DNA from: Planctomycetota bacterium
Lineage (GTDB): Bacteria > Planctomycetota > SZUA-567 > H5-PLA8
Direction of reading: 5' to 3'
Length of the DNA: 64,000 bases
Assembly: GCA_038227875.1 (NCBI GenBank)
Contig: JBBRPR010000009.1
Coordinates: 96,001-160,000 of the forward strand
The notes under the pieces are model-generated. The model did no database searches and was not told where the DNA came from. It saw nothing but the letters and a program-made list of their open reading frames with translations. Both the position numbers and the translations under genes were made by a program. The stretch's first letter is position 1. Every line of letters begins with the position of its first letter. This document shows positions 12,810 through 50,507 of this stretch, in pieces.

Positions 12810-12918
12810 CGCGGCGAGCGCGGCCAAGCCGCGAGGGGTCAGGGGTCAGGGGCCAGGGGTCAGAGTAGACGAGCGTTGCGCGAGAATGCGACAGGCACGG
12901 AGATTGATGGACGGTTGA

Positions 12919-12958
12919 ACAGCAGAACAGCAGAACAGCAGAACAGCAGGAACGGCAG
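12919..12958 (+). repeat. Octamer tandem repeat (ACAGCAGA)x~4 upstream of the four-helix-bundle gene
   Basis: acagcagaacagcagaacagcagaacagcaggaacggcag. Confidence 0.85.
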
Positions 12959-12975
12959 GTTTTGAGGAACGCGGT

Positions 12976-13365: not shown

Positions 13366-13411
13366 CCCCTGACCCCTCGCGGCTCTGCCGCGGTGAACGG
13401 AGACGAAACAA

Positions 13412-14359
13412 ATGAGCGATCTACTCAAAGGCCTGGCGATTGGCGTGCTGTATGGCGGTCCTTCTTCCGAGCGCGAAGTTTCGATTGAGTCTGGGGAGAA
13501 TGTTGCGTCGGCTTTGGAGAAGGCGGGGCATGATGTTCATCGCGTGCTCCTCGATGGATCGTTTACGGCGAAGGATGCGCAGTCTCTTGGAATTGATGTC
13601 GCGTTTCTGGCTCTGCATGGTGAATTCGGTGAAGACGGCGTGATCCAGGGGATTCTGGAAGCGGCGGACCTTCCGTACACGGGCAGCGGAGTGGATGCGT
13701 CGTCGACAGCCTTCGACAAGGTGTTGGCCAAGCGCGCGTTTGAGAACCACAACCTCCGCACGCCGGCCTGGATGTCGCTGGACGTTTCCGAATTGGAAAA
13801 GGCCGGTGGCTTCAACGGGCTGTGCCTGATTCCGCCGATGGTCGTGAAACCGGCGACGGGCGGGTCGAGTCTGGGCGTCACCATCGTTCGCGACGAGTCG
13901 CAGGTGACTCCGGCGGTCAACAAGGCTTTCGAATACGCCGACACGATCATCGTGGAACGCTACATCAAGGGCCGCGAAGTAACGGTCGGGGTGCTGGGTG
14001 ATTCGGCACTGCCGGTCGCGGAACTGAAGATTGCTGGCGAGTTTTTCGATTACCAATCGAAGTACACCGACAACGGTACGACGGTGGTCTGCCCCGCGGA
14101 CCTCAACGAGATTCTCGCCGCGTGCGTGCAGTCGCTGGGCCTCGCCGCGCACCGCGCACTGGGTTGCCGCGATTACTCGCGCACCGACATCATCATCGGC
14201 GAAGACGGCCTGCCGTGGGTATTGGAAGTCAACACGCTGCCCGGCATGACATCACATAGTCTCCTTCCGCGCGCCGCGGGTGCGATGGGCAAGAGCTACG
14301 CAGAACTGTGCGAAGAGATGCTGCGCATGGCCGTCACCCGTTCGCTGGCGCGAAAGTAG
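13412..14359 (+). CDS. ddl: D-alanine--D-alanine ligase
   Basis: GGPSSEREVS, LHGEFGEDG, PYTGSG, VKPATGGSSLG, FFDYQSKY, LEVNTLPGMTSHSL. Confidence 0.96.
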   Translation: MSDLLKGLAIGVLYGGPSSEREVSIESGENVASALEKAGHDVHRVLLDGSFTAKDAQSLGIDVAFLALHGEFGEDGVIQGILEAADLPYTGSGVDASSTAFDKVLAKRAFENHNLRTPAWMSLDVSELEKAGGFNGLCLIPPMVVKPATGGSSLGVTIVRDESQVTPAVNKAFEYADTIIVERYIKGREVTVGVLGDSALPVAELKIAGEFFDYQSKYTDNGTTVVCPADLNEILAACVQSLGLAAHRALGCRDYSRTDIIIGEDGLPWVLEVNTLPGMTSHSLLPRAAGAMGKSYAELCEEMLRMAVTRSLARK

Positions 14360-14457
14360 GCAGAAGGCAGCGGCAGTCAGCAGTCCGTGATTGGAATGCG
14401 TTCAGCAAAGAAATTATTCCGCTCGAAGAAATTGAGTTTAACGGGGAGAAGGTCGGA

Positions 14458-33486: not shown

Positions 33487-33806
33487 AGCGCGATCCGTAA
33501 AATTCATAAAGCCAATCTGTTTGGGTAATATTAGCGTGCCGCTGAAGCTTCAGCGGCACACTTCACTATTTTGTGCAAGTCTCTAATAAGGCGCACGTTA
33601 TGAGCATAATGCACAGCTGCACAGCAGGAGAGGCGCCCTCCGCCGCACGAAAGTGCGTGGCGAATTTTTAAAATCGGGCGGAAATCCTTGACGGGCACGT
33701 GAAAGCACTTTACACAATCAAGCCGCTGAAGCAGTTGTGGTCGGGGATCGAAACGTTTCTCGCATCGAATTTTCAGGTCAGGACAGAGGGAGGAGGCACC
33801 TTTTAC

Positions 33807-35507
33807 ATGGCTATACCGCCGAAGAAAGTAGTTCCCGCGAAAGCCCCGGCAGGACCATCCGCAAAATCTCCGGTCAACCCGGCCAAGCACGAGGACGAAG
33901 AGACGACGCTCGCCAAGAAGCGCAAAAAGCGCGACGAGGATGAAGAGGAAGAGGAGGACGCCGAGGACGACGAAGAAGCTGATGACGATGAGGAAGATGA
34001 AGACGACGAAGATGAAGAGGATGATGACGAAGAAGACGAAGATGAAGAAGACATCGACGAAGAAGAATTAGACGAAGAAGAAGAGGAAGAAGAAGACGAG
34101 GAAGAAGAGCTCGACGAGGAAGACCTTGAAGAGGTAGAACTCGACGACGAAGAGCTCGACGAGGACGACGAAGATCTCGATGACGACGAGGATGAAGAAG
34201 ACGACGAAGACGACGAAGACCTCGACGACGACGAAGACGATGAAGACGACGACGATGAGGACGACGAAGACGAAGAGGATGAAGAGGACGACGAAGACGA
34301 ACGTCCCGCACCCAAGAAGAAAAAGGGCAGCCGGGGAGAAGCGGCTGCCGTTGTGGCGGTAGGAGCTGTGGCGGCGGCAGGCGTAACTGCCGCCGCTGTC
34401 ATTGCGGCGAAGAAGGCCGGCGACGCGGGGACCAGCGGCAAATCGCCGGCGGTCAAGGCTGGCTCGGACGCATCCAAGAGCGCCAAGGGGCTCGCGTCGG
34501 TCAAGCCCACGGACGCGGCCAAGAGCGCCAAATCGCTGGCCTCAGTGAAGCCGACCGATGCCTCGAAAAGCGCCAAGGGCCTGGCCTCCGTCAAGAAAGA
34601 TGACGTTGAAGACGCTGATGCCGAAACTGATGTAACCAAGCCGGTGATGAAGGCAGCCTCCGCTCGCCCCCTCAAGGCGGGTGCTTCCTCCGCCTCCGGT
34701 GCGGCCGTCGGTTCAGCGCGTGTGTCAGGCAAAGCGGGCACGTCCCGTTTGTCGCGCGCCGTCGGCGACCCGAAGGAAAAGCAGCCACAGAAGCCAAATA
34801 AGATCGTCGGCTACATGATGATCGCCTGCGTGATCCTGTTCATCCTGATCATCGTGGTGCTGGTCACGCGCTGGGACATCATCAAGGCGCACTTCACCAA
34901 GGGACCGCCGCCGGCACCGGTGAAGAAGCTCTCCGATGCCGCGCAGGCTCTGGTGGACAAAGCGAAACAAGCGCACGACCTGTACGACGAAGGCGTCGCC
35001 GTGCCGCAGGCCGCCGCGGTCCTCTCCGCGCTTCGCGGAAAAACCAAGCCCGATCAGTTGTTGAAAGACAGCAAGCCGGAAGACGCCGAGGCGTTGCGCG
35101 CCGCAGCTTTGAAACTGGAGAAAGCGACGGAGCTTTTCGACAGCATCAAGGATTCCGGAAGCGTGGTGCCGGGGTACGAAGATCTGATCAACGAAGCGCA
35201 GAAGCGCCTGCCGGAAATCGACAAGGAACGCCACGAACTGGCGGATGTGGCCACCAGCATCGAGATGGCGAATATGGGCAAGGGCTTGAACAAGCCCCCG
35301 CCGCCCGACAACAAGCAGCCGGGCACTACGCCGCCGGTCGGTACCGGGATCCCCAAGCCGCCGGAAGAAATTCCGACGCCGCCAGATGGCATGACCATGG
35401 ACGATTGGCTGAAAAAGCTGGAAGAAGAGGACTACAGCAAGGCCTCAGACATCCGCAAGCTGATCAAGAAGAAGGAAAAAGAGAAGCAGGATCAAGAGAA
35501 GAAGTAG
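33807..35507 (+). CDS. Bitopic membrane protein with a ~123-residue Asp/Glu tract in its N-terminal (probably cytoplasmic) part
   Basis: ATG 33807 after GGAGG. D/E tract at 33933-34301, three ~15-aa DASKSAKGLASVKPT repeats, single TM (IVGYMMIACVILFILIIVVLVT), helical C-terminal domain. Confidence 0.8.
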   Translation: MAIPPKKVVPAKAPAGPSAKSPVNPAKHEDEETTLAKKRKKRDEDEEEEEDAEDDEEADDDEEDEDDEDEEDDDEEDEDEEDIDEEELDEEEEEEEDEEEELDEEDLEEVELDDEELDEDDEDLDDDEDEEDDEDDEDLDDDEDDEDDDDEDDEDEEDEEDDEDERPAPKKKKGSRGEAAAVVAVGAVAAAGVTAAAVIAAKKAGDAGTSGKSPAVKAGSDASKSAKGLASVKPTDAAKSAKSLASVKPTDASKSAKGLASVKKDDVEDADAETDVTKPVMKAASARPLKAGASSASGAAVGSARVSGKAGTSRLSRAVGDPKEKQPQKPNKIVGYMMIACVILFILIIVVLVTRWDIIKAHFTKGPPPAPVKKLSDAAQALVDKAKQAHDLYDEGVAVPQAAAVLSALRGKTKPDQLLKDSKPEDAEALRAAALKLEKATELFDSIKDSGSVVPGYEDLINEAQKRLPEIDKERHELADVATSIEMANMGKGLNKPPPPDNKQPGTTPPVGTGIPKPPEEIPTPPDGMTMDDWLKKLEEEDYSKASDIRKLIKKKEKEKQDQEKK

Positions 35508-38043: not shown

Positions 38044-39249
38044 CTAAGCGTCGCGCGCGACGTTGAAGACGAGACGGGTACTTCCCTGATCGTCTTCCAC
38101 TTCAGTGGAGTGGTGTTGGTGGCGCGACGGCTTTTTCTGGGAGAGCAGCACGACACCGCCGATCAGCGCGAGGATCAGCACGACCAGCGTGAATATTTTC
38201 CAGAAACTGTACGGCCGGTCGCCAGTCACTTCTCCGGTCTGGCCGTTGATCTGGAAGCAGAAACTTTTGTTGTTGAAGCGGTAGCAGCTCACCCACAGCG
38301 GCAGCAGTATGTGCTTGTAGGTGATGCCATTGTACGCGGTATTGATCGACAGAATGCGCTGCTCGTCGCCGCCGATTTCGCTGCGCACGCCTTCGCGGAT
38401 TTCGTCGGCGATCACGGATTTCGCCTTGCTCCAGCCTTCTTCGCAGGAGACGGCGTAGCGTTCCGCGCCGAAGCCGCTGAGGTACTCGGGCGTGTATGGC
38501 GTCAGTTCGTTCAGACCGTATTTCGTCGGGTACTTGGCGTCTTTGCCCGCGTCGATCAGCACGTCGTCGAAAAATTCGCTGTGAACGCCGGAGACTGGAA
38601 TCCACATCGTGTGCCGGACCTGGCGTGTCTTGGTGACGGTCTTGCCGTCTTCGGTGGTCGTGTAGGTTTCCGTTGTGTAATAGTACGTACCGCGTTCGCC
38701 CATCCAGTGGCTAATGGTGTTGGAGTCGTACGTCCAGAAGGGCCGGTAGACGCCATGGAGTTGCTTGGCGTGCGAATCGTTTTTGAGCGAATTGGGCGCG
38801 AACCAGAGTCCGGAAATCCACTTCGAGAACAGTTTCTGCGCTTCTTCGAGCGTGACTTTGAATGGCAGCACCGCTTCGGGCGTGACGATGTCCTCGGCCG
38901 TCTTCTCGCCTTCGCCGTCCTCCACCACCAACGGCGCGCCACAGTAACCGCAGGTTGTCGCGCGGATATTCGCGTCGAGATGCGCGATCGCGCCACAGCC
39001 GCTGCAGCGGACATCGCGGCGCTGGCCGGGCGTTTCGCCGTAGCCGGTGGACTTGGGTTTCGCGAGGTAATCGTTGAACGAGTACTCTTTGATCTCATCG
39101 GCCGTCTGCGGAATCTTTTCTTCGTGCCCGCAGAAACCGCACTTCAACGCGCCGTCCTTCGGCGCAAAAACCAGATTCGCGCCGCAGGCCTTGCAGGGAA
39201 ACTTGCGCTCTTTCTCGGTGACGGTCGGTGCGGCTTCTTCTTGCGCCAT
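38044..39249 (-). CDS. Multi-zinc-ribbon membrane protein (family commonly paired with SPFH/YdjI-like genes)
   Basis: CKACG, CGFCG, CSGCG and CGYCG knuckles; PEAVLPF, YRPFW, LLPLW, INGQTGEV; C-terminal TM. Start could be GTG 39264. Confidence 0.75.
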   Translation of the reverse strand: MAQEEAAPTVTEKERKFPCKACGANLVFAPKDGALKCGFCGHEEKIPQTADEIKEYSFNDYLAKPKSTGYGETPGQRRDVRCSGCGAIAHLDANIRATTCGYCGAPLVVEDGEGEKTAEDIVTPEAVLPFKVTLEEAQKLFSKWISGLWFAPNSLKNDSHAKQLHGVYRPFWTYDSNTISHWMGERGTYYYTTETYTTTEDGKTVTKTRQVRHTMWIPVSGVHSEFFDDVLIDAGKDAKYPTKYGLNELTPYTPEYLSGFGAERYAVSCEEGWSKAKSVIADEIREGVRSEIGGDEQRILSINTAYNGITYKHILLPLWVSCYRFNNKSFCFQINGQTGEVTGDRPYSFWKIFTLVVLILALIGGVVLLSQKKPSRHQHHSTEVEDDQGSTRLVFNVARDA

Positions 39250-39368
39250 AGCTTTCCGTGACACCCATGGAGTCGGCGGGCAGAAAAGCTGGCTATCTTA
39301 AGACAGCCAGTTTGACGGATTATTTTTGGAAGACTTTACGCCTGGAGTGAGCGCGCGCAAGGTTCACG

Positions 39369-40388
39369 CTACAATTTCGCCAGCAGCTCAGTCTTCTTCG
39401 CCGTGTACTCCGCCGCATCGATCAGCCCGGCTTCCATGAGCTTCTTCAGCTGGCTGAGTTTCCCGACGATGTCCTCGGCTCCACCGGCAGCGGGAGCCGC
39501 CGGGGCCGCAGCGGGCTGCGGTTGCTGTTGAGCGGCGGCCATGGCGCTGGCCATCTGCCCGCCCATCATCGCGCCCGCGCCCAATCCCATGCCGATGCCG
39601 GCCATGCCGCCGGGCTGTTTCGCCGCGTCGGGAATCGCATTGGCGACCTGGAACTGCGTGAAGCGATTGAGATCGCCGATCGCGCCCATCTGCGAGCGCT
39701 TGTCGAGCGCTGCTTCGACTTCTGGCGGGACGGAGATATTCGAAATGATGAAGCGCGTCAGAGTCAGGCCGTGGGATTCGAAATCCGCGCCGATATCCTT
39801 GGTCAGCGCGCCGCCGATCTCCTTGTAGTTCGCCGCCAAGTCCAGGCACGGCACCTTGGCTTTGCCCAATGCTTCAGCGAACGCCTGGAGCAGCATGTCG
39901 CGAAGGTACTCGCTGATCTTTTCCGTCTCGAAGAGGCCGTCGGTGCCGACGATCTCTTTCAGGAAGACGCCGGGATCAGAGATGCGCACCGCATACGCGC
40001 CAAATGCGCGGAGGCGAACGACGCCGAAGTCGGCATCGCGCATCATGATCGGATTCTGCGTGCCCCACTTCAGGTCCGTGAACTGCCGCGTCGCGACGAA
40101 GTACACTTCGCTCTTAAAGGGGGATTCGAAGCCGTACTTCCAGCCCAGCAGCGTGGAGAGGATGGGCAGATTCTTGGAATCGAGCGTGTAGGTGCCCGGT
40201 CCCATGACGTCGGCGAGCTTGCCTTCGCGGATGAAGACCGCCGCCTGGCCTTCGCGGACGACGAGCTTCGCGCCGTTCTTGATTTCCTTGGCGTAGACGG
40301 GAAAGCGGTAGACCATCGTGTCGCGGGAATCGTCGACCCACTCGATGATCTCAATGAACTGTGCCGTCAACCGATCGAAGAACCCCAT
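39369..40388 (-). CDS. SPFH/band-7 (YdjI-like) protein with C-terminal SHOCT domain
   Basis: IEIIEW, LVVREGQAAVF, PGTYTL, SPFKSEVYF, KWGTQNP, LRAFG; terminal LSQLKKLMEAGLIDAAEYTAKKTELL. Confidence 0.85.
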   Translation of the reverse strand: MGFFDRLTAQFIEIIEWVDDSRDTMVYRFPVYAKEIKNGAKLVVREGQAAVFIREGKLADVMGPGTYTLDSKNLPILSTLLGWKYGFESPFKSEVYFVATRQFTDLKWGTQNPIMMRDADFGVVRLRAFGAYAVRISDPGVFLKEIVGTDGLFETEKISEYLRDMLLQAFAEALGKAKVPCLDLAANYKEIGGALTKDIGADFESHGLTLTRFIISNISVPPEVEAALDKRSQMGAIGDLNRFTQFQVANAIPDAAKQPGGMAGIGMGLGAGAMMGGQMASAMAAAQQQPQPAAAPAAPAAGGAEDIVGKLSQLKKLMEAGLIDAAEYTAKKTELLAKL

Positions 40389-40566
40389 GCGGACGTCTCC
40401 TTTTTTAACGCGAAGCACGTGGTGAAGTGACGGGAGAATAATACCTCACAGAGGCCATCACTGGCAACGCCTATTGAGCGCCAAGTGGTGGACACAAAAT
40501 GCGGTTTTTCATAGGCGAAGTTCGGCTTACAAAAATAGTTCCGATTTGTAACGCGCTACGTATTTC

Positions 40567-40647
40567 ATCTCACGCAAAGGCGCGAAGCCGCAAAGAACGG
40601 ATTTTTTGATCTCGCGCAAAGACGCAAAGACGCCAAGAACGGATTTT
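40567..40647. repeat. Two direct ~40-bp repeats built of CGCAAAG-type octamers; a third copy is inverted at 50655-50688
   Basis: atctcacgcaaaggcgcgaagccgcaaagaacgg and atctcgcgcaaagacgcaaagacgccaagaacgg. Confidence 0.8.
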
Positions 40648-40757
40648 CGAAAGGGATGTTGAATTTGGCTTGAGCTCAAATCCCACGCAAGGGGTGCTGC
40701 CCTGAGCTTGTCGAACGGGCGGGAAGAATGTGGCGGTTGCAAATTGGCGCGCTGAAC

Positions 40758-42089
40758 TCAGGGCGCTTGAAACAACGCCGTTACGCGCAGGCCGAGCTTC
40801 ACGAACTTCGCGGGCGGGGGTGTGTCGAAGATCACGACGGTCTCGACGATCTTCACATCCACGCGCTCTTTCGATTCACCGGTCGAAAAGCGTTTCTGGC
40901 CAGTGGCGTTGCTGACGCTTTGGACGGTGCCGTTGAAAGCTGTGCCGGCGAAGGCGTCGGCGGTGATCTTGACGCGCTGGCCGGCGGCGACGCCGGGGAA
41001 GTCGGCTTCGTCCACGTCGGCGCGGACGCGCAGGCGCGACAGGTCGGCGACGGTCACCACCGGCTGTGGATGGAGCGCGTCGATCACTTCGCCGGGATGC
41101 ATGAACTTGCGGATGACCGTGCCGGAGAGCGCGGCGACGATGCGCGTTTTTTGCAGCTCGGCTTTCGCCAAGTCGACTTGGGCGCGCGATTGTTCGACTT
41201 GGGCCTGAGCCGACTGGATCACGAACGACGCGGTGGCTTTCTGGCGCAGGACTTCGGCCTCGGCGCTGGCGAGCATCGCGCGAGTGCGGTCTTTCTCTTC
41301 CGGGCGCGATCCGGTTTCCAGTGCGCGCAGATGCGCCTTGGACGCGGCAAATTTCGCGGCGGCGGCCTCGGCGTAGCGGTGGGCCTGATCGTAGAGCTGC
41401 ACCGACCACGACGTGCCGCGCCCGTTGGGGTTGGCGTAACGCTGTTCGTCTTCGGAGAAGCGCTTGGCGTCGGCCTCGAGCGCGGCGGCATCGGCGCGCG
41501 CCTGCTCGAGGTCCTCATGGCGCGGTTCGAGCAGCGTGACTTCGGCCTTCAAGCGCGCGACTTCACTCTCAGCTTTTTTAAGTTCGCCATCGAGGTTGGC
41601 GCGCAGCATGCCGAACTTCGCGTCGGTGGCGCTCAGGTCGGCCTGGCTGGATTTCAGCTTTGCGGCGAGGTCCGCGTTTTCCAGTTCGGCGATCACGTCG
41701 CCGGCCTTCACCGGCTGGCCTTCGTCGACGTAGACGGCGCGAATCTTGCCGCCGACTTCAAACGAGAACGCCCGCTCGCCGCTGGCTGCTTCAACGAGAC
41801 CCGGAGCGGCTTTGTAGTGTTCGAACGGAGCCGGCGCGGGAGTCGGCGGCGGCGCGACGCTCACACTTTCGGCCGTGCTCTGGTGTGCGCTCATGAATGT
41901 GAACGCGGCGACGAGCAGCGCCACCACGACAGCGGCGAGCACAAGCCAACTGCTCCGCCCGCGGTGTTTGCGAGGTACTGCCAGCGGCGTGGCGCTGTCG
42001 ACGCGCACGGCAGTTGGGAGCGCGACGCTCGATTTCGGCACGCGCGGGCGGGCTGGCGCCGGTACGGGTGCGGCGGAATCTTTTTTCAT
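40758..42089 (-). CDS. HlyD-family periplasmic adaptor (DevB-like)
   Basis: N-terminal TM, APGLVE, GKIRAVYVDEGQPVKAGDVIA, long helical hairpin, IVAALSGTV, VRADVDEAD. Start overlaps the upstream TGA. Confidence 0.9.
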   Translation of the reverse strand: MKKDSAAPVPAPARPRVPKSSVALPTAVRVDSATPLAVPRKHRGRSSWLVLAAVVVALLVAAFTFMSAHQSTAESVSVAPPPTPAPAPFEHYKAAPGLVEAASGERAFSFEVGGKIRAVYVDEGQPVKAGDVIAELENADLAAKLKSSQADLSATDAKFGMLRANLDGELKKAESEVARLKAEVTLLEPRHEDLEQARADAAALEADAKRFSEDEQRYANPNGRGTSWSVQLYDQAHRYAEAAAAKFAASKAHLRALETGSRPEEKDRTRAMLASAEAEVLRQKATASFVIQSAQAQVEQSRAQVDLAKAELQKTRIVAALSGTVIRKFMHPGEVIDALHPQPVVTVADLSRLRVRADVDEADFPGVAAGQRVKITADAFAGTAFNGTVQSVSNATGQKRFSTGESKERVDVKIVETVVIFDTPPPAKFVKLGLRVTALFQAP

Positions 42090-42847
42090 CAGTTGCTCGC
42101 AGTCTCGGCGACCACGGCGCCGGTTCGGGAAACCAACCATTGGCCGTCGGCAGCCTGTTCCGGCCGCACGCGGCGGACGATCCGATGCAACTTGCCGTCG
42201 GCCATTTCGATCACGCGGTCGGCGAATTCGCGCACGCGGGGATCGTGGGTGACAACCAGCACTGTCGTGCCGTCTTCTTTCGCGCGGGTGCGCAGCAGGT
42301 CCATCACGCGGCGGCCCTGAAACGCGTCGAGCGCCGCGGTCGGCTCATCGGCCAGCAGCACCGGCGGGCCGCCGGCCAGAGCGCGGGCGATGCCGACGCG
42401 CTGGCGCTGGCCTCCGGAGAGTTCCATCGGATACGACTTCGCTTTCGCGGCGAGGCCGACGCGGTCGAGCAGTTCCGGTGCGGAACTCAAACTCACACCG
42501 CGGAGTTGTAGCGCGACTTCGATGTTCTCCAGCGCCGACAGCGACGCGAGCAGATTGAAGCTTTGAAAAATGAATCCGATGCGCGAGCGCCGGAACGACT
42601 GTAACTGGGCTTCGCTGCAGCAATCCAGGCTGACGCCGCAGACGCTGATTTCGCCGTGTGTCGGCGAGAGCACGCCGCCGATCATCGACAGCAGCGTCGT
42701 CTTGCCGCTGCCGGAGGGTCCCATCAGGACGGTGACTTCGCCGGGAAAAATCGAGAGCGAGACGCCGCGCACGGCCCAGGATTCGCCGCCGTCGTAGTGC
42801 TTGCTGACATTCCGGATCGCAATCGTGGCGTTCATGTCGTGCCTCAT
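42089..42847 (-). CDS. ABC transporter ATP-binding protein (DevA/LolD-like)
   Basis: GPSGSGKT, IGFIFQ, LSGGQRQR, LLADEPT, VTHD. Real start is ATG 42847 (ATGA overlap), not the 43705 start in the ORF track. Confidence 0.93.
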   Translation of the reverse strand: MRHDMNATIAIRNVSKHYDGGESWAVRGVSLSIFPGEVTVLMGPSGSGKTTLLSMIGGVLSPTHGEISVCGVSLDCCSEAQLQSFRRSRIGFIFQSFNLLASLSALENIEVALQLRGVSLSSAPELLDRVGLAAKAKSYPMELSGGQRQRVGIARALAGGPPVLLADEPTAALDAFQGRRVMDLLRTRAKEDGTTVLVVTHDPRVREFADRVIEMADGKLHRIVRRVRPEQAADGQWLVSRTGAVVAETASN

Positions 42848-43986
42848 GTTCTGAAGACCATTCCCGGTTCGATCCGTCTCAGGCGGTGGATCGAGAGCAA
42901 CGACGATCCCGACGCGAGGAAAAATGTGAGCACGGAGACGGCTGCGATCAGCGGCAAGGGAATCAGCACGGCGTTGCCGGCCGATGTCGCCAGCGCGCCG
43001 AGCGCCTCGCTCAACACCAATCCCGCCAGCAATCCCGCCGCGCCGCAGAGTAGACCTTGCGCCAGGACGATGCGTGCGAGTTCCAGCATGGTTGCGCCCA
43101 TTGCCTTGAGCACGCCGAACTCGGGGAGCTTTTCCAGGGTCATCGCGTAAAGCGTCTGCGAGACAATCACACCGCCGACGACCAGTCCCAGAAACGCCGC
43201 GACGAGGAAGCCCAGTCCCACGCCGGTCTCCAGCAACCAGTACTTGCGCGTGCGCCAACTGAAGCCTTCTTTGGTGTGCGCTTCGACGAACGGAATCGCT
43301 GCTTCGATTCGCGCGCGTACGGCGTCGACGTCCGCGCCGGGTGCGACTTTGACCAGGAAGTAGACCGAGCGTTCGCTGCTCGAACCGATGCCGCCGGCCA
43401 GCCAGCCGTATTCCTTCCCGCGCCGCAACGTGGTGAAGAGAAAGGGCGTGGTCGTGAACGAGCGCATGCCTTTGGTGAAGCCCACGACTTTTGCGCGGGT
43501 CGTCAGCACTTCGACGTAATCGCCGAGATTGGGGTTGCCGAGCTTCTTGCGTTCGCCTTCGTCGAGGATGATGGCGTCCTGGTTGTGCAGCGCAGCGACG
43601 TCGCCTTGAGCCATATTGAGCGGCGCGCCGAGCTGGCCGTTGGGATCGAAGCCGATGACGATGCAGTTGGCGTTGCCGCCGTCCGGCATCCGCCAGACGC
43701 TCCACGAGACGTTGTACTCTTCCACCAGCGCCACGCCGGGCACGGCTTGAATCTGGAACTTCTTGCGCTGGTCCATCGGCGTGACGAAATCGAAGGTCTT
43801 CACGTCGCGCACGCTGACCCAGATGTCCGCGTTGGATTTGTCGATCAGCAGCGACGCGTCGCGCACCAGTCCCAGCAGCATCCCGATCTCGAGCGTGACC
43901 AGCACCACTGAGAAGACGATGCCGAGGACGGCGATGCTGGCGCGCAGGGGATCGCGGATCAGGTTGCAGCAGCCGATGGCAATCAT
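42844..43986 (-). CDS. ABC transporter permease (DevC/FtsX-like)
   Basis: TM, periplasmic domain (ADIWV...), then three TMs; QTLY...EFGVLKAMGA, C-terminal IEPGMVF. Confidence 0.9.
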   Translation of the reverse strand: MIAIGCCNLIRDPLRASIAVLGIVFSVVLVTLEIGMLLGLVRDASLLIDKSNADIWVSVRDVKTFDFVTPMDQRKKFQIQAVPGVALVEEYNVSWSVWRMPDGGNANCIVIGFDPNGQLGAPLNMAQGDVAALHNQDAIILDEGERKKLGNPNLGDYVEVLTTRAKVVGFTKGMRSFTTTPFLFTTLRRGKEYGWLAGGIGSSSERSVYFLVKVAPGADVDAVRARIEAAIPFVEAHTKEGFSWRTRKYWLLETGVGLGFLVAAFLGLVVGGVIVSQTLYAMTLEKLPEFGVLKAMGATMLELARIVLAQGLLCGAAGLLAGLVLSEALGALATSAGNAVLIPLPLIAAVSVLTFFLASGSSLLSIHRLRRIEPGMVFRT

Positions 43987-44017
43987 GGCGCGTTGCTCCG
44001 ATGGAATTTCGTGCGGG

Positions 44018-44061
44018 TCAAAAGTCAACATAGGGACCATGGTCCCCATGTTGGCTTTTGA
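44018..44061. promoter_or_regulatory. Long imperfect palindrome between the acyltransferase and permease genes
   Basis: tcaaaagtcaacatagggacc-at-ggtccccatgttggcttttga (21-bp arms, 2 imperfect pairs). Confidence 0.55.
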
Positions 44062-44066
44062 TCACT

Positions 44067-44948
44067 TCAAACTGCCAGCGTTTCGATCTTGGCGGGTGCG
44101 GTGAGCCCGAAATACCGCGCGTCGTCGCGGGTCATCGGCTTGTGACTCGTGGCGAGGAACTGCGCCACCGCGCCTTCCTCCAGCCACGAATAGAAGTAGG
44201 GGTAGAGCGTTCGTTCGTCGGAGCGTGCGCCCTGTCCGCCGACGCGGCGAATTTCGCGCTCGCCCATCCCCAGGTCGCAGCGCAGCAGCACGGCCGGCGC
44301 GCCTTGCACGCGCAGACAGGCGCGCTCCGGGCCAACCTGCTCGAAATTCAGGAGGCGGCGGTAGTAGGTGACGTGGCGCGGATTGACTTCGATCACGAAG
44401 TCGTCGAAGCCGCGCACGCGCCGCGCGAAGATGTAGATGAAGTTGAAGAGCCGGACCAGCAGCAGCTTTGAGCGCTGATTTTCTTCGCTGATGGCCAGGC
44501 GGGTGACTTCCACGAGTCGGCGGCCCTGACCGCGCAAACTGTCGAGCTCGTCGCGATAGATTTCGTCGCAGGGCAGGCCTTCGTCGGAATCGAAGACGAG
44601 CGAAATGGTGGCGGCGTCGCCGCCTTGTTCATCTTGCGCCAGCAGCGTCAGCGTTGAGGTATGCGTGTCGAAGCGCGAGAGGATGAGCTGCTGCTCGCCG
44701 GAGACATACCCGCGGCCGCTGTACACGCGGTGTGCCAGCGCGTAGGCGCGGCGGCGTGTCGCGCGATCGGCGGCGACGCGGATTTGAAAACCGGGATCGC
44801 CGTTATCGCCAGAGACGTTCCAATCGACCAGGCCGCGGTCGAAGTCGGCGTTGATGGCCTTCAGCACTTGGGAAACGGCGCTGGGGCGGCGCACGCGGAC
44901 GGTTTCGGTGGGCAGGCCCAGCACGTCGCGATCTTCCGAAGTCAGCAT
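44067..44948 (-). CDS. N-acyl amino acid synthase, FeeM-type (GNAT/LuxI-like fold)
   Basis: AYALAHRVYSGRGY, ATISLVFDS..GLPCD, LVEVTRLA, IEVNPRHVTYYRRLLNF, GAPAVLL. Confidence 0.85.
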   Translation of the reverse strand: MLTSEDRDVLGLPTETVRVRRPSAVSQVLKAINADFDRGLVDWNVSGDNGDPGFQIRVAADRATRRRAYALAHRVYSGRGYVSGEQQLILSRFDTHTSTLTLLAQDEQGGDAATISLVFDSDEGLPCDEIYRDELDSLRGQGRRLVEVTRLAISEENQRSKLLLVRLFNFIYIFARRVRGFDDFVIEVNPRHVTYYRRLLNFEQVGPERACLRVQGAPAVLLRCDLGMGEREIRRVGGQGARSDERTLYPYFYSWLEEGAVAQFLATSHKPMTRDDARYFGLTAPAKIETLAV

Positions 44949-44989
44949 GGTGGATTCTCCTCAATTGAAATCGGTGCAGTCCGCTACTT

Positions 44990-45952
44990 CTATTTCGCCA
45001 TCCGGCTTAGCAGCACGTGCCGGCGGAGCCGCTGCAGCGGCGAGCGGTTGCCCCAGCGCAACTTACCGCGCGTGACGGTGAAGGTTTTGGCGTTGAAGGC
45101 CGCGTAATGCGGAGCGGCGGAGACTTGATCGGGATCCTGGAGCAGCCGGAGCACAGTCGTCGCCACGACGCCCGAAGCGATCGACGCGGCCAGCGCCAGC
45201 GACGGCGCGTTGGTGCTTCCAGTCGCGGTGACTTTGGAGAGATCGAGATCGCGGAAGCCGTTCATGGTGGGGGACAGTCCCAGCGCGAAATTGGCGAGGC
45301 ATTCTTCGCGCGACCGGCATCCCGGAAAATCGAAGTAGCGATTGAAGCTCATCCCGCCCGGCCGGAAGACCAGCATGTTGACGCCGAAGCCCATCGGCGC
45401 GGCGGTGACCAGCGGAATGCCCAGCTTCTCCGCGGCCGTAAAGAGCGCCAGGCGCGCTTCGAGCGCATAAAATTCAATGCTGTCGACGACCACATCCACA
45501 CCGTCGAGCAGACGTTCGACGTTCTCCGCGTCGACGTCCGCGTGTTCGACCTGCAATTGCGCGTGCGGGTTGATTTCCAGAATCCGCTCCGCCACCGCGT
45601 CGGCTTTCCAGTTTCCCAGCGTCGCGGTGGTCGCGCCGGCCTGGCGGGCGAGATTGGAAATCTCGTAGCGCTCCGGATCGGTCAGCACCAGACTGCGGAT
45701 GCCCAACCGCGCCAGCGCAAACGCATGGAAGCTGCCCACCGAACCGGCCCCGGCCACCAGCACCCTGGCCTTCCACAAGCGCTGTTGCAACGCTTCGTCG
45801 ATGATGCCGCGGTGCCGTCCATACACGCGCTGAAAATAGCCATCAGGAGTCTGGATGTCCGCGGGCGTTTTCGACTGGATCCTGGGCATGCTCTGCACGT
45901 GCGGCTCGACGGTCAGCATCGTTTGGGCTCCATGTGGGAACAGAGTTTCCAC
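44990..45952 (-). CDS. ThiF/MoeB-family adenylyltransferase (stand-alone, no CxxC zinc motifs)
   Basis: VLVAGAGSVGS, DPERYEISNLARQ, K, DVVVDSIE, C-terminal GNRSPLQR. The start could be ATG 45919. Confidence 0.88.
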   Translation of the reverse strand: METLFPHGAQTMLTVEPHVQSMPRIQSKTPADIQTPDGYFQRVYGRHRGIIDEALQQRLWKARVLVAGAGSVGSFHAFALARLGIRSLVLTDPERYEISNLARQAGATTATLGNWKADAVAERILEINPHAQLQVEHADVDAENVERLLDGVDVVVDSIEFYALEARLALFTAAEKLGIPLVTAAPMGFGVNMLVFRPGGMSFNRYFDFPGCRSREECLANFALGLSPTMNGFRDLDLSKVTATGSTNAPSLALAASIASGVVATTVLRLLQDPDQVSAAPHYAAFNAKTFTVTRGKLRWGNRSPLQRLRRHVLLSRMAK

Positions 45953-46006
45953 GCTGCCAGTTCGCGGGAACTGGCCTCGCCACTCTCAATCCAGTTTGCA
46001 GAACAT

Positions 46007-47461
46007 TCAGGGTTTCTTCTGGCCGCTGTCCGCTTTCTCAGTCCGGCTCGGTTGCAGGATCAACTGCCTGAAATTGATGAACGCCTCCGGGTCGCGCAAT
46101 GGGTCGGGAATTTCGCTGGGCGCCAGTGTTTTGATCTCCAATTCGTCGACGGCCACATTTTGGAGCTGTAGCAGTATGGAGCTGGTCTCCAAGGGCTTCG
46201 TGAATTCACTGACATGCGTGAGTTCATCGTTGCCGAAGACAAACGAGTATCGACCGATCCAGTAGGTCGTGACGGTGATCGCCGGGGTCGTGAACGTATC
46301 GTGTGACGAGGTATCCCAATGCAGGGCTTTATGCCAGAAGCGACTTTCGCGTTCCGGGCCATTCTCGATGCGAAAAAGCGAGCACTCGTAATTGGGGGAC
46401 TTCTTGTCGATGATTCCGCAGTAGCGCATGCGGGACATGGCCGGGCGCGAATCGAGCTTCAATGGAATCTGAATCTGGCTGACGGCTTCCACGCGGAGTA
46501 CGCCCTTGAACGGTCCGGAGCTGGCCTGCCAGTCGACTTTGCCATTCAGGAATTGAAAATTCGCGGGCCTGCCGTCGTCGAACGTATAGCGGGTCTGGAC
46601 TGGAGCATCCGTCGCCGTCTCCGTGGATGTGGCTGGGGCGACGACGGGCGTTGGCGTCAGCGCGGTCACAGACGCCGGACGATTGCTATAGAGGTAAAAA
46701 CCGACCAGTCCCGCGCACACGACGGCGCAGGCACTGAGAACCAGGGACCGTTGCCCGTTTCCTGCGCGTTCCACAATTTTGCGAATGGATGGCCGCAGCG
46801 GCCCGCCCTGAGCCACGTGCTGCAGGCTCTGCTGCAGCGACAACGGCGCCGTCTGCATCGGCAGTTGCGACAGCAGTTCTGGAAGCGCCACGGCGCCCAG
46901 CACGATTCCGCCGGCGGTAAGTTGAGCGCGGATCATTTCCAGCGCCCGGGAAAGCTGCACGCGGATGGTGCCTTCCCGCGCCTGCAATGCCTCCGCCGTC
47001 TCACTTTCGCTCAGGCCGTGACAGTAACACAGCAACACCGGATCGCGGTAGCGCTCCGGCAGCCGGAGCAGCACCGCCAGCACGGTGTCCATGAGGTCCA
47101 CGGAGTCCTGTGCCGGCGTGGATTTCTTGTTCATGGACCCACCTCGATTTTGCCGGACTTCGTCTTCCCGGCGCACTCTGCGCTGGCCGGAGCGGACGAT
47201 CAGCCTGCAGGCTTTGCGGACGATCGAGTACAGCCAGCCGCGGATGCTCTGCACCCGGCCGTATTCGCCGGCCCGCCGCATCACGTCCAGAAAGGCCATC
47301 TGCATCGCATCCTGGGCGTCGTCGGGGTTGCGGAGCACGCGGAGCGCGAAGGCGTAAAGTTCGTCCTGGTATCGAGCAAAGAATTCGGACAGCGCCGCGG
47401 GATCCTGCCGCTCGGCGTAGGTGCGCAGCAGCTGGCGCTCGTCTTGGGAGTTTATGGGCAT
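46007..47461 (-). CDS. ECF sigma-70 factor with C-terminal TM and extracytoplasmic domain
   Basis: Region 2 DAQDAMQMAF...WLYSI, region 4 LPERYRDPVLLCYCHGLS...GTIRVQLSRA, TM LVLSACAVVCAGLVGFYLY, beta-rich C-domain. Confidence 0.88.
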   Translation of the reverse strand: MPINSQDERQLLRTYAERQDPAALSEFFARYQDELYAFALRVLRNPDDAQDAMQMAFLDVMRRAGEYGRVQSIRGWLYSIVRKACRLIVRSGQRRVRREDEVRQNRGGSMNKKSTPAQDSVDLMDTVLAVLLRLPERYRDPVLLCYCHGLSESETAEALQAREGTIRVQLSRALEMIRAQLTAGGIVLGAVALPELLSQLPMQTAPLSLQQSLQHVAQGGPLRPSIRKIVERAGNGQRSLVLSACAVVCAGLVGFYLYSNRPASVTALTPTPVVAPATSTETATDAPVQTRYTFDDGRPANFQFLNGKVDWQASSGPFKGVLRVEAVSQIQIPLKLDSRPAMSRMRYCGIIDKKSPNYECSLFRIENGPERESRFWHKALHWDTSSHDTFTTPAITVTTYWIGRYSFVFGNDELTHVSEFTKPLETSSILLQLQNVAVDELEIKTLAPSEIPDPLRDPEAFINFRQLILQPSRTEKADSGQKKP

Positions 47462-47691
47462 GGAACGCACTCTTTTCCTGACCGGCACCCTGGTCCCTGT
47501 CCTGAACCTGCCCGCTTTCACTGCACTGGATACCGCAGGCGGTACCCCGATTACAAGAATCCGAATTTTTTAAACGGTAATGAACGTTGAAATTATCCCA
47601 GCATATATTGAGCCCAGTCCATCCTACTAAGGATGTGTAAAAAGAAGTGCAGAAACTTTAACTCCCGCCGTCTGTCTAAGTAAGGGTGCGC

Positions 47692-48153
47692 ATGTTAAAG
47701 AAAGCGTCGGTCGACGACCTCAAATCGGGTGCAATAACGCGAGCCACAAGTTACATAGTGATTACGATGTGCCACTACCCGCGGGGTATACGTAAGGAGT
47801 TGTCGGACGAGTACGTCAAAGCCCTCGCCCCGGACCCAGGCCTGCTCAAAGACTTCCAGAGCGAGAAAAAGCGGCGGGAGGGCAGTCACAATGCCGCATT
47901 TGCCTGCGTCCACTATGAACAGCGGTTTAAGCTGGAGCCGGAAGGAATCGCCGAGCTGCGCCGCCTGGCGGGGCTGAGCGGCGAAAGGGATGTCACCTTT
48001 GTCTGCCAGTGCGCGGCGGATGAACGCTGTCACCGGGAATTATTACTCATTCTCGCGCGACAATGGTATGGGGCGAAGACGGAGATTCGCCGGTTTTCGT
48101 ACCCGCTCTTTGAACGCCGCATTCCTGAGAAAGAAGGCCCGCTCAAGTCCTAA
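47692..48153 (+). CDS. DUF488/YeaO-like protein
   Basis: YPRGIRKE, LAPDPGLL, C-x-C...CHR motif. Confidence 0.7.
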   Translation: MLKKASVDDLKSGAITRATSYIVITMCHYPRGIRKELSDEYVKALAPDPGLLKDFQSEKKRREGSHNAAFACVHYEQRFKLEPEGIAELRRLAGLSGERDVTFVCQCAADERCHRELLLILARQWYGAKTEIRRFSYPLFERRIPEKEGPLKS

Positions 48154-48224: not shown

Positions 48225-50507
48225 TTGAACATGAAAGGAATAGCGCCCTTGCCAACCCGCACCGACATCCACCCGCTGCACCCGCTCTTTCGCAGGACCG
48301 CCGTGATGCTTCTGGCGGTATTCAGTCTCACCTTTCATTTTCGAACCAACGCGGCGGAGAAGCTCAAGCCTGAGCATGTGGCGATCCTGGTGCCGCAGAT
48401 TCTCGAGATCCACGTCAAGCAGCACACCATGGATCCGGCGTTCATGCGCCGCCTGATGAAGGAATACGTCGAGCAGCTCGATCCGGGCCGCAGCTTCTTT
48501 TTGAAATCCGAATACGACGCCGTGTTGACGCTCACCGACGACGAATGCAACACGCTGGCTCAGCGCGCCACCGACGGCGACTTGGGACAGTTCAAAACGA
48601 TCCTCAAGAACTTCCTCGACAAGCAGATCGCGCGCGACACGGAGATGTACGCCTCGCTGGACAAGCGCGCCGATGAAATCCGCCAGAAGGCCAAGGACCG
48701 TTTGAAGGCCCGCACCGACAAGGCCGACGCGACCAAGCCTGACACCGCGATCAAGCCCGACACCGCCGTGAAGCCCACCAAGCCCGACGAAACGGTGACC
48801 AAGGACAAGGACAGCGAGGACGATTACATCGATCCCGACGGCATCATCTGGAAGGACCGCCCGGCGACCAACGAGGAACGCGAAAAGCGTCTGATCATCT
48901 CCACCGCGTCGCTCTACTCCCTGAACAAGGAGTACCTCAAGGACGACGAAGCGATGAAGCTCGCCATCCAGGCAATTCAGCGCAACCGCGAAAAGTGGCA
49001 GAAGACGGTCGTCGACGACGACGTCGCCAAGATTTTCCTGAAGAGCTTCATGATGGCGCTGGACCCGCATTCCGATTACCTGGAAGGCGACGACGAAGAA
49101 GATTTCACCTCGCACATGGAACGCAGCTTCGCGGGAATCGGCGTGCAGATTCGCCCGTGCCCGCTGGGCGCGCATATCGAAGATGTGATCAAGGGCGGAC
49201 CCTCGGACAAGAGCGGCAAGTTCGCGCGCGGCGACCAGATCGTAGCCGTCGACAACGTGGTGCTGGCCGGCATGACCATCAACAAGATCGTCAAGCTGAT
49301 CAAGGGCGAGAAGGGCACCGACGTGAAGTTGACGGTGCTGAAGCGCGACACCAGCAAGACCGATGTCATCACCATCAAGCGCGACACGATTGAACTGGCC
49401 GACATGCGCGTGAAGGGCAAGACCATCGATTCTCCGGACGGCCCGGTGGGCTTGATCTCCGTGCAGGCGTTCTACCAGGGCGTGCACAACGACGTCCGCG
49501 ACCGCCTCAATGAAATCAGCAAGGGCAAGGCGCTCTCCGGCGTGGTGCTGGACCTGCGCAACAACACCGGCGGGTACCTCGACGAAGCGATCGGACTGGC
49601 GAGCCTGTTCATCGAATCCGGCGCGGTGGTCGGCGAACGCAACGGCCGCAACAAGATCCAGTGGCAGGACGATCCGGACGAGAAGATCGAATTCCGCGGC
49701 CCGCTGGTCATCCTGACCAACCAGTTCTCGGCCAGCGCATCGGAAATCGTGACGGGCACGCTGAAAGCCTACGGCCGCGCGGTGGTCGTCTCACACACGC
49801 AGACGTTCGGCAAGGGCACCGTTCAGAAGGTTCTGCCGCTCAATTCGCACGGCCTGCCGGGCGAAATCAAGGTTACGACCGATCAGTACTTTCTGGCCAA
49901 TGGTTCGTCGGTGCAGTTGAAGGGCGTTGATCCGGACGTGATCATTCCCGGCCCGAAGCTGCTCAACGAAGACGGCTACCTGGAAGCCGCGACGCCCAAC
50001 GCGATCGCATGGAACCAGATTCCCGGCCGCCTCGACAACGCCAAGCCCGAAGTGAAGATGTGGATGGAGTGGAAGAACAAGAACATGAAGTCGCTGCAGG
50101 GTCGTTCCAAGCAGCGCATCGACGCCAACCCGGAATTCGCGAACCTCTTCGACTTGAAGAAGCGCAAGGAAAAGGAAAAGGCGAACCCCGAGAAGGACAA
50201 GCCCGACAATCCTGACGCTCCGCCGGCGCTTGACGAGAAGAAGAAGGACGAGAAGGATCCGCAGGCCGACGAAGCCGTGGCGATTGTGCGCGACATGATC
50301 AGCACGTGGCCGTTGAACGACGGACAAGCCGTGGCCGAAATGCCGCCGCCTCCGCCGGTTGTCGCTCCGTCCGTCGCTGCCGACACCGAGCTGCAGGCGC
50401 AGATCGAAAAGTTGAAGGAAGAGAACAAACAACTGCGCGAAGAGAACGAGAAGCTGCGCAAAGGCGTGACCCAGTCCAAGCCCGTGAAAGACGAAATCAC
50501 CAAGTAG
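48225..50507 (+). CDS. prc: Carboxy-terminal processing (tail-specific) protease, S41A
   Basis: LDPGRSFF, LDPHSDYL, GIG plus PDZ domain, LDLRNNTGG, SASASEI, TFGKGTVQ, SVQLKGVDPD. Exact start uncertain. Confidence 0.92.
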   Translation: MNMKGIAPLPTRTDIHPLHPLFRRTAVMLLAVFSLTFHFRTNAAEKLKPEHVAILVPQILEIHVKQHTMDPAFMRRLMKEYVEQLDPGRSFFLKSEYDAVLTLTDDECNTLAQRATDGDLGQFKTILKNFLDKQIARDTEMYASLDKRADEIRQKAKDRLKARTDKADATKPDTAIKPDTAVKPTKPDETVTKDKDSEDDYIDPDGIIWKDRPATNEEREKRLIISTASLYSLNKEYLKDDEAMKLAIQAIQRNREKWQKTVVDDDVAKIFLKSFMMALDPHSDYLEGDDEEDFTSHMERSFAGIGVQIRPCPLGAHIEDVIKGGPSDKSGKFARGDQIVAVDNVVLAGMTINKIVKLIKGEKGTDVKLTVLKRDTSKTDVITIKRDTIELADMRVKGKTIDSPDGPVGLISVQAFYQGVHNDVRDRLNEISKGKALSGVVLDLRNNTGGYLDEAIGLASLFIESGAVVGERNGRNKIQWQDDPDEKIEFRGPLVILTNQFSASASEIVTGTLKAYGRAVVVSHTQTFGKGTVQKVLPLNSHGLPGEIKVTTDQYFLANGSSVQLKGVDPDVIIPGPKLLNEDGYLEAATPNAIAWNQIPGRLDNAKPEVKMWMEWKNKNMKSLQGRSKQRIDANPEFANLFDLKKRKEKEKANPEKDKPDNPDAPPALDEKKKDEKDPQADEAVAIVRDMISTWPLNDGQAVAEMPPPPPVVAPSVAADTELQAQIEKLKEENKQLREENEKLRKGVTQSKPVKDEITK

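Follow-up and report, generated by a model that had tools for sequence, protein, structure and literature searches.

The six genes considered here lie in a 64 kb stretch of planctomycetal DNA (the window; contig JBBRPR010000009.1 of assembly GCA_038227875.1). They encode a fused extracytoplasmic function (ECF) sigma factor, a ThiF-like adenylating enzyme (ThiF-A), a FeeM-type synthase (NAS) of N-acyl amino acids and a three-gene ATP-binding cassette (ABC) exporter. On balance, this operon probably makes, ATP-activates and exports an N-acyl amino acid lipid under its own sigma factor. The open reading frames (ORFs) are tightly packed on the minus strand and occupy 40758-47461 (to 47521 with the extended sigma ORF), an interval reaching exactly from the stop codon of the adaptor gene to the ATG at 47461 of the sigma gene. 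The features are the following:

47529-47555, minus strand: putative ECF-type promoter TGTAATC-N13-CGGTATC upstream of the sigma gene, a motif match
46007-47461, minus strand: fused ECF sigma factor with linker helices, transmembrane helix, spacer and periplasmic domain, 484 aa (Pfam Sigma70_r2, r4_2 and Sigma70_ECF)
44990-45952, minus strand: ThiF-like adenylating enzyme (ThiF-A), 320 aa (Pfam ThiF, 137 bits)
44067-44948, minus strand: FeeM-type synthase, 293 aa (Pfam FeeM, 163 bits)
42844-44049, minus strand: DevC/MacB-type ABC permease, 401 aa (Pfam MacB_PCD and FtsX)
42089-42847, minus strand: DevA-type ABC ATPase, ~252 aa (Pfam ABC_tran; the ORF spans 42089-43705)
40758-42089, minus strand: DevB/HlyD-type membrane fusion protein (HlyD_D23, HlyD_3, Biotin_lipoyl_2)

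The sigma ORF reaches a GTG at 47521 (504 aa), and the 484 aa are counted from the ATG at 47461. The true start of the ATPase gene is 42847, overlapping the DevC stop codon, and the adaptor ORF extends to 42140 with a probable start at ATG 42089. The sigma and ThiF genes are separated by 54-87 nt, ThiF and FeeM by 41 nt, FeeM and DevC by 17 nt; DevC and DevA overlap by 4 nt (ATGA), DevA and DevB by 1 nt. GC content at third codon positions is 0.76-0.82 in five of the six ORFs and 0.63 in the DevA frame, because this ORF is over-extended upstream, which dilutes the value. An earlier note on this DNA had described six co-oriented genes with short gaps or overlaps. Its coordinates, co-orientation and spacing match those given here, and its six gene identities were all borne out by Pfam (46 window ORFs scanned) and NCBIfam. 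The flanking chromosome is ordinary (dcw/mur genes, a phosphate ABC transporter, RNase R and gyrA), and the homologue records that carry names belong to Planctomycetota.

The window FeeM matches the full Pfam FeeM model (PF21926) over residues 68-225 with 163.1 bits against a gathering score of 27, and the family profile matches the solved FeeM structure 2g0b_A (E-value 5.4e-16). The glutamate aligned with that of the FeeM sequence 'LAEV' is E147, invariant in 23/23 aligned homologues; the equivalent Glu of FeeM is presumably catalytic. The protein, predicted to make N-acyl amino acids, has 560 detectable homologues, the best of them 70% identical. The planctomycetal homologues P0018, P0027, P0029, P0032 and P0034 of alignment A1 have a conserved Ala-Ala-Gly-x C-terminal tail that is missing from the window FeeM.

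FeeM loci were collected from one genome per species using the alignment of 23 FeeM homologues as the query; 334 relatives were found and 80 loci of ~20 kb each were kept. Seven of these are planctomycetal (L001-L004, L006, L008 and L009; L005 repeats the L006 sequence with a different label), with L002, L003, L008 and L009 coming from one genome, and the remainder are mostly Burkholderiales. A ThiF gene was found near FeeM in 36 of the 80 loci (37 matches). Of these 36, 27 have a gene of the nitroreductase family either behind ThiF or fused with it, as in the 719-aa protein of L010 composed of ThiF and Nitroreductase. Nine FeeM+ThiF loci are nitroreductase-less: L014, L038 and L050 end at a contig edge, L031 has only ~1.1 kb of sequence beyond its ThiF, L008 carries ThiF-A and a second ThiF, and L033, L045, L055 and L071 apparently hold true nitroreductase-less pairs, which in L033, L045 and L071 (Burkholderiales) are surrounded by PEP-CTERM, Wzz and polysaccharide-export genes. 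These counts make NAS with ThiF a known and frequent pairing, and the loss of the oxidase uncommon but not unique. The nitroreductase-less pair pointed out in the earlier note is real, but it is shared with the PEP-CTERM loci of Burkholderiales. The stand-alone ThiF beside the NAS gene is equally real, although already known from TyzB (PMC10404671) and from Stieleria (PMC12479983).

The NCBIfam models matched by ThiF-A are PRK08223 (259 bits, cut-off 266), PRK14851 (208) and PRK14852 (192), while the MoeB, ThiF and TcdA models give at most 97 bits. The 989-aa model PRK14852 is matched by the window ThiF at 303-581 and by the window FeeM at 39-224. With PRK08223, the L001 ThiF scores 330, the second and first ThiFs of L008 score 312 and 268, and the Burkholderiales ThiFs 436-456. 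In a 40-row ThiF tree, MoeB, ThiF and TcdA of E. coli fall outside (Shimodaira-Hasegawa approximate likelihood ratio test, SH-aLRT, 93). The window ThiF pairs with L008:12474-13427 (SH-aLRT 100). This pair has a very long branch and forms a group of its own, next to the Burkholderiales clade and to the pair of the L001 and second L008 ThiFs; the tree does not order the three. Nitroreductase-linked locus proteins and NCBIfam models served as proxies for TyzB and OxzB. Scores and tree agree that the enzyme does not group with the MoeB/TcdA housekeeping clades, as the proposal of a lipid-activating ThiF in the earlier note presupposed.

ThiF-A and L008:12474-13427 have 78% identity, against no more than 42% for all other ThiFs. 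A collection of 5.8 billion proteins yielded seven clusters at 68-80% identity, the next ones being at 42% or less, and three of the seven are probably co-located with FeeM homologues, as their longest contigs agree exactly in length (26329, 6498 and 4243) with those of FeeM homologues. The database copy of ThiF-A begins at Met12 (45919). No column that is invariant across MoeB, ThiF, TcdA and the NAS-linked ThiFs has changed; G68, G70, G73, D92, N100, R103, Q104, K116, N128, P129 and D157 align with the equivalents of E. coli MoeB, ThiF and TcdA. Both CxxC zinc motifs of MoeB and ThiF are missing, and the insertion typical of the NAS-linked family, common to the nitroreductase-linked relatives, is present. 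Judged by its residues, ThiF-A is intact as an adenylating enzyme; it probably belongs to the NAS-linked family, of which it represents a rare and divergent branch. Among the sampled loci this branch occurs in the window and L008 only, in both directly after an orthologous sigma gene, and both lack a nitroreductase over the 64 kb of the window and the 20 kb of L008. At L008 12474-14613 there are tandem ThiF genes, one of the ThiF-A and one of the ordinary NAS-linked type.

A nitroreductase, a sulfur-carrier gene and a precursor gene had been reported missing from the cluster, and Pfam, tblastn and inspection of the gaps lead to the same result. No Pfam Nitroreductase domain was found in the 46 window ORFs scanned. 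A tblastn search of the window and the 80 loci with four TyzC-like nitroreductases from related loci matched 27 of these 81 sequences, and the window was not one of them. A ThiS/MoaD or precursor-peptide gene was ruled out: there is no space between the six genes and no credible ORF. The only sizeable gap, 339 nt between the adaptor and the next gene (40419-40757), holds two tandem 42-nt copies that are 86% identical (40563-40646). This repeat yields a spurious 71-aa ORF, and all ORFs of the gap are repeat-derived. No Rfam family matched at 38-50 kb of the window.

The best NCBIfam models for the last three genes are DevC, DevA and DevB. The DevBCA-type exporter of the earlier note is upheld to that extent; the scores, however, are all under the cut-offs (DevA 222.1 bits against 295.8, DevC 99.3 against 290.35, DevB 103.5 against 129), so that the resemblance is only subfamily-like, and the order is C-A-B, not B-C-A. 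A MacB-type permease, an ATPase and an HlyD adaptor are encoded together, the adaptor having one N-terminal transmembrane helix. Exporter genes follow the enzyme genes in 2 of the 80 FeeM loci, both of them among the seven planctomycetal ones (L001 and L008). Identity to the window pump is 63% (DevC), 72% (DevA) and 43% (DevB) in L001, and 36%, 45% and 30% in L008. The supposed linkage of sigma factor and exporter to the enzyme pair was thus recovered in other genomes, and the grouping is beyond chance because FeeM, ThiF, DevC-A-B and a long ECF sigma factor recur at both loci.

Other exporters were also seen near NAS genes. An ABC_membrane-type exporter is present at the NAS locus of L007, and at that of L033 (Burkholderiales; 11321-14382) the genes after FeeM were assigned by Pfam to an ABC ATPase, a permease of the FtsX type and a LolA-like protein. 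The ATPases at L033, L011, L014 and L032 are 44-45% identical to the window DevA-like ATPase; those of L011, L014 and L032 are tblastn ATPase matches only, 0.8-5.7 kb from FeeM and, in L011, on the opposite strand. The set of the L033 type is a different lipid-export-looking module beside NAS genes.

The sigma protein is composed of sigma2, sigma4, ~50 residues of helices, one transmembrane helix (ORF residues 257-279 by hydropathy), a Pro/Ala-rich spacer and a C-terminal domain of ~190 aa without a Pfam match. The sigma domains are its only Pfam matches, with no FecR domain and no zinc-finger anti-sigma (ZAS) motif, and the linker in 7/7 sigma sequences has 0-2 Cys and 0-3 His in no motif. 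An AlphaFold2 model from a 57-row alignment has a mean predicted local distance difference test (pLDDT) score of 85, exceeding 95 in the sigma part and reaching ~93 in the two helices after sigma4 and ~95 in the all-beta C-terminal domain. Foldseek placed the modelled sigma part near SigW-RsiW (TM-score 0.82) and CnrH-CnrY (0.84, target-normalised), and RNA-polymerase-bound ECF sigma factors at only 0.31-0.43. This nearness to anti-sigma-bound structures suggests that the sigma part is in a closed, self-inhibited state. Inhibition is hinted at solely by the two confidently modelled helices and the closed conformation.

Modelled alone (pLDDT 90, pTM 0.86), the C-terminal domain matched lectin-like jelly rolls in Foldseek (E-value ~3e-5, TM-score up to 0.49), namely calreticulin, sialidase carbohydrate-binding modules and the galactocerebrosidase lectin domain. 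The ESM Atlas gave weak leads (best 0.88, one a PF06439 cluster), which are no more than consistent with a beta-sandwich fold. Only 51 matches were obtained among 1.84 billion representatives, nearly all in proteins of 470-550 aa with the domain at the C-terminus. Alignment A3, whose 57 rows are the window protein, six sigma proteins of the loci and 50 of the 51 matches, carries Sigma70_r4_2 in 48 rows. A word-index homologue search with sigma residues 296-504 gave no scored match. Window and L008 share 73% identity over the sigma domain and 38% over the C-terminal one; among the three paralogues of L009, the values are 44-53% and 22-29%.

Two plus-strand genes are divergent from the sigma promoter: one for a DUF488 protein (47686-48153) and one for an S41/Prc-type tail-specific protease with a PDZ domain (48225-50507). 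As Prc is the site-1 protease of IutY, the latter is a possible activator of the sigma factor, which proves nothing; the gene is not conserved beside the L008 cluster.

The sigma family is tied to FeeM. A hidden Markov model of the C-terminal domain, applied to ORFs of at least 100 aa in the window and the 80 loci, matched the window, L001, L003, L008 and three proteins of L009; all seven matches are part of the model by construction, and the informative result is that nothing else matches. All seven family members, taken from ~188 kb of planctomycetal DNA, lie within ~2 kb of FeeM. In L003 the sigma gene is followed by FeeM after 66 nt, and in L001 after 538 nt, together with ThiF, a nitroreductase and DevC-A-B. 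The order in L008 is FeeM, sigma, ThiF-A, second ThiF and DevC-A-B, and in L009 sigma, sigma, FeeM and sigma. L002, L004 and L006 have FeeM without this sigma family, so the link holds in four of the seven planctomycetal loci besides the window. Six of the seven sigma genes lie within ~1.1 kb of FeeM or its ThiF, which, by a rough estimate for loci of ~20 kb, departs widely from random placement. The three paralogous long sigma genes of L009 (504, 520 and 516 aa) flank their one FeeM gene at 6493-12461.

Shared promoter motifs accompany this linkage. TGTAATC-N13-CGGTATC has one exact match in the 64 kb (47529-47555), with 0 expected from 100 shuffles, and with the same spacing it occurs once among 83 loci, upstream of the orthologous L008 sigma gene (10837-10863). 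L008 has a further copy, with two mismatches but an unchanged -10 part, 53 nt upstream of where its FeeM gene is likely to start. L009 has three matches to CTGCC-N15-YGGATWK against 0.02 expected, two of them upstream of sigma genes and one upstream of FeeM; a variant with GTGCC precedes the third sigma gene. The element at 47529-47555 is a putative promoter. Scans for sigma-70 promoters and terminators remained at chance level (2 against 1.1 and 9 against 8.6), and so did relaxed matches to the promoter motif in the window (4 against 2.2 expected), so that no further targets can be claimed. No motif shared by the sigma and FeeM upstream regions of L001 was seen by eye. Matches to the L009 motif at L001 904-930 and 1360-1386 fall in unannotated sequence and were set aside as probable chance. 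In both orthologous sigma genes, an alternative start codon (GTG or TTG; 47521 in the window, 10868 in L008) is situated 5-8 nt after the -10-like element. This raises the possibility of a leaderless transcript and of a protein that exceeds the one begun at ATG 47461 by 20 residues. The literature searched contained no paper linking NAS genes with ECF sigma factors; supplements to the ECF classification, outside this search, may already list this sigma group.

On the reading favoured here, one operon transcribed from the ECF-type promoter would encode its own regulator and a short lipid pathway. The FeeM-type synthase would link a fatty acyl group, from acyl carrier protein or coenzyme A, to an amino acid. 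The ThiF-like enzyme, with its ATP-site residues intact, would then use ATP to adenylate this N-acyl amino acid at its free carboxylate, so that ring closure through the amide oxygen could give a 5(4H)-oxazolone, as with TyzB and OxzB. Since no desaturase is encoded locally, the azlactone formed would be saturated and labile. Compounds of this kind readily racemise and acylate amines. Three fates are conceivable for it: export without further change, reaction with an amine, or ring opening back to the N-acyl amino acid, possibly with inverted configuration. The DevC-A-B-like pump of the MacB type, together with the membrane fusion protein, would carry the lipid out of the inner membrane. On the model of IutY and ECF52, proteolysis set off by a periplasmic cue may free the sigma part, which would in turn increase transcription of the operon that encodes it. 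External or envelope cues are favoured over strict self-sensing by the lectin-like fold and by the three sensors that accompany one synthase in L009. The analysis itself establishes the gene identities, the conserved linkage, the intact ATP-site residues, the shared promoter motifs and the predicted architecture, from which the chemistry, the exported substrate, the proteolytic activation and the cue are inferred.

Several points weigh against this reading. In Mycobacterium tuberculosis, as reported, TyzB is apparently the last-acting enzyme, and cyclised saturated intermediates were not seen (PMC10404671), which leaves the action of a ThiF without a desaturase unproven. Planctomycetal pathways are described as often unclustered (PMC12479983), and the desaturase could be encoded outside the 64 kb. 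The ThiF-A branch has no member with a known product, substrate or activity, and the score under the PRK08223 cut-off together with the very long branch means that its reaction may differ. ThiF-A moreover travels with the sigma gene and not with FeeM, leaving room for another role. No outer-membrane channel gene is present in the cluster. The linkage is based on seven planctomycetal loci, four from one genome, and the motifs were derived from the very sites that were counted, so that their statistics are partly circular and supportive rather than proof.

An ordinary route to tyrazolones or N-acyl-dehydro-amino acids, completed by a flavin-dependent oxidase (nitroreductase superfamily) whose gene lies in another part of the genome, is possible, though it is regarded as clearly less probable than the favoured reading. 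The usual position of a nitroreductase beside ThiF in FeeM+ThiF loci and the loose clustering of planctomycetal pathways would suit it, as would the fact that the window FeeM and pump are closest to those of L001, a nitroreductase locus. However, neither of the only two ThiF-A loci has such a gene in the 64 kb of the window or the 20 kb of L008, the nitroreductase-linked ThiFs sit on other branches, and pairs without the oxidase also exist in L033, L045, L055 and L071.

It is also conceivable, but unlikely, that the sigma factor's periplasmic domain binds either the exported lipid or its oxazolone, so that the cluster would induce itself in the manner of quorum sensing but free of LuxR, as the earlier note proposed. 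Synthase, exporter and membrane sensor-regulator would then form a closed loop in one autoregulated operon. The FeeM genes of L008 and L009 share a promoter motif with the adjoining sigma genes, one genome has four FeeM loci, three of them with sigma paralogues, like multiple synthase/receptor pairs, and the C-terminal domain diverges faster than the sigma domain. A signalling role has also been the subject of speculation by the stieleriacine authors (PMC7293339). Against this, the sensor fold is that of carbohydrate-binding, lectin-like modules and no lipid-binding protein is among the top Foldseek matches. The three sensors of L009 with a single synthase, two of them sharing a promoter motif, are better explained by several inputs.

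Less probable still, and put forward as a speculation, is a LuxR-free lipid signalling system of Planctomycetota. Here, FeeM synthases, often several paralogues to a genome, would have their partners in a dedicated family of membrane-spanning sigma/anti-sigma fusions whose lectin-like periplasmic domains recognise the exported N-acyl amino acid derivative. In the nitroreductase-less form, ThiF-A would be an ATP-driven 'azlactonase' forming a saturated, amine-reactive oxazolone, which on ring opening would give N-acyl-D-amino acids.

A role of ThiF-A in the sigma module, adenylating another carboxylate (a peptide, a protein C-terminus or a cofactor) and not the FeeM product, is considered improbable. 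It could account for the position of ThiF-A directly after the sigma gene in both loci that carry it, for its conservation between the window and L008 (78%, close to the 73% of the sigma domain, against 52% for FeeM, which is placed elsewhere in L008) and for the second, ordinary NAS-type ThiF retained in L008. However, the NAS-linked models score far above the models of protein-adenylating ThiF, MoeB or Cap2. There is also no candidate gene for a small protein or peptide, and three further ThiF-A homologues apparently share contigs with FeeM homologues. That sigma factor and pump are mere neighbours of the NAS/ThiF pair, forming a generic envelope-stress or efflux module, is hardly credible: pumps of the MacB type and ECF sigma factors are widespread (Planctomycetes have 1134 ECF genes in 23 genomes, or ~49 in each; PMC7671368), but the genes overlap or nearly abut on one strand, the combination returns in L001 and L008, and all seven members of the sigma family found in ~188 kb of planctomycetal DNA lie within ~2 kb of FeeM.

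The component types are all known. In OxzA/OxzB of Pseudoalteromonas rubra, ThiF is fused to a nitroreductase (PMC12596934); in TyzA, TyzB and TyzC of M. tuberculosis, TyzB is a stand-alone ThiF performing ATP-dependent cyclisation and TyzC a flavin-dependent oxidase (PMC10404671); in TrzA/TrzS of M. tuberculosis and its relatives, the oxidase is fused in TrzS (PMC12856293). Like the window, the three systems have an N-acyltransferase gene of the FeeM/LuxI-like fold adjoining a gene for a ThiF-like ATP-dependent cyclase, which in Tyz stands alone as it does here. They differ from it in having the flavin-dependent oxidase fused (OxzB, TrzS) or adjacent (TyzC), where the window has none. In these accounts no ECF sigma factor or ABC pump is described, an MmpL transporter gene being located near tyz, and the window ThiF belongs to a separate, rare branch.

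Stieleria, likewise of Planctomycetota, has clusters with NAS, separate ThiF and nitroreductase genes and a methyltransferase (PMC12479983), and the Stieleria maiorica cluster is described with a DegU-type regulator and RND pumps (membrane fusion protein and CzcA; PMC7293339). NAS genes are clustered with a ThiF-family gene in both Stieleria and the window, whereas the fused ECF sigma factor and the DevC-A-B-type ABC pump are found in the window and not in Stieleria. Stieleriacines modulate biofilms, and the saturated stieleriacine C probably carries a D-amino acid of unexplained origin, a tyrazolone-like intermediate being named as one possible route of epimerisation (PMC12479983).

The pump of the window shares the MacB_PCD and FtsX permease, the ATPase and the HlyD-type adaptor with MacAB and with the DevBCA exporter of heterocyst glycolipids. 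Unlike DevBCA, it scores under the family cut-offs, has the order C-A-B and lacks an outer-membrane partner nearby. The sigma factor can be compared with IutY of P. putida (ECF243), which is released by Prc and RseP and whose proteolytic activation has been shown (PMC8999054; PMC5411451), and with the ECF52 protein SCO4117 of S. coelicolor. The latter has a Pro-rich spacer and a carbohydrate-binding domain, controls antibiotic production, and is proposed to be activated by proteolysis (PMC8999054). All of them unite a cytoplasmic ECF sigma factor, a transmembrane segment and a periplasmic sensing part in one polypeptide, but the window sigma factor has neither a FecR-like domain nor a zinc-finger anti-sigma motif, and its family is tied to FeeM. 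The FeeM/TyzA fold resembles that of acyl-homoserine lactone synthases (PMC10404671). As in LuxI/LuxR, a synthase gene of related fold lies beside a regulator gene and autoregulation is possible; the window regulator, in contrast, is a membrane-spanning sigma factor and not a cytoplasmic LuxR, and no LuxR-type receptor was found in the cluster.

Both the window and the NAS loci linked to PEP-CTERM have FeeM-type NAS genes in Gram-negative bacteria. NAS genes are reportedly linked to PEP-CTERM/exosortase loci (Craig, Cherry and Brady 2011), and in the Burkholderiales loci collected here FeeM adjoins PEP-CTERM, Wzz and polysaccharide-export genes both where ThiF is present and where it is not. 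Such a context was rejected for the window, as no PEP-CTERM or exosortase gene was found in the 46 ORFs scanned. The combination of components is not described in the literature searched, and the new element lies in this combination: the oxidase loss, the rare ThiF branch and a FeeM-linked sigma family with shared promoter motifs.

The cluster is a compact test case in which a synthase and a ThiF-like activator occur without a desaturase, and it could show what such a ThiF does alone: form a saturated oxazolone, epimerise its substrate or transfer it to a nucleophile. A nitroreductase-less NAS/ThiF pair is also a natural place to test epimerisation via a tyrazolone-like intermediate. If ThiF-A were an azlactonase, the D-configuration of stieleriacine C would be explained. 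The sigma-FeeM link would give a first candidate regulator of N-acyl amino acid lipids in Planctomycetota and offers a handle on what this small family of sensors, in which sigma and anti-sigma factor are fused, does. Binding of the product by the sensor, if it occurs, would amount to a new architecture of cell-cell signalling. Related lipids include the tyrazolones of M. tuberculosis and the biofilm-modulating stieleriacines of Planctomycetota.

Several other genes of the window were noted. Just downstream of the cluster, at 38044-40418 on the minus strand, there are an SPFH/Band-7 protein with a SHOCT tail and a second gene encoding a 406-aa zinc-ribbon membrane protein without a Pfam match. 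A 787-aa protein encoded at 19345-21708 on the plus strand combines Isochorismatase, TCAD9 (ternary-complex-associated domain 9) and a dual-specificity phosphatase domain and resembles components of conflict or signalling systems. The 602-aa protein encoded at 33699-35507, also on the plus strand, has no Pfam match, Lys-rich stretches, one transmembrane helix and a run of ~130 residues that is nearly pure Asp/Glu; its composition accounts for the AT skew of 0.3-0.4 at 34-35.5 kb.

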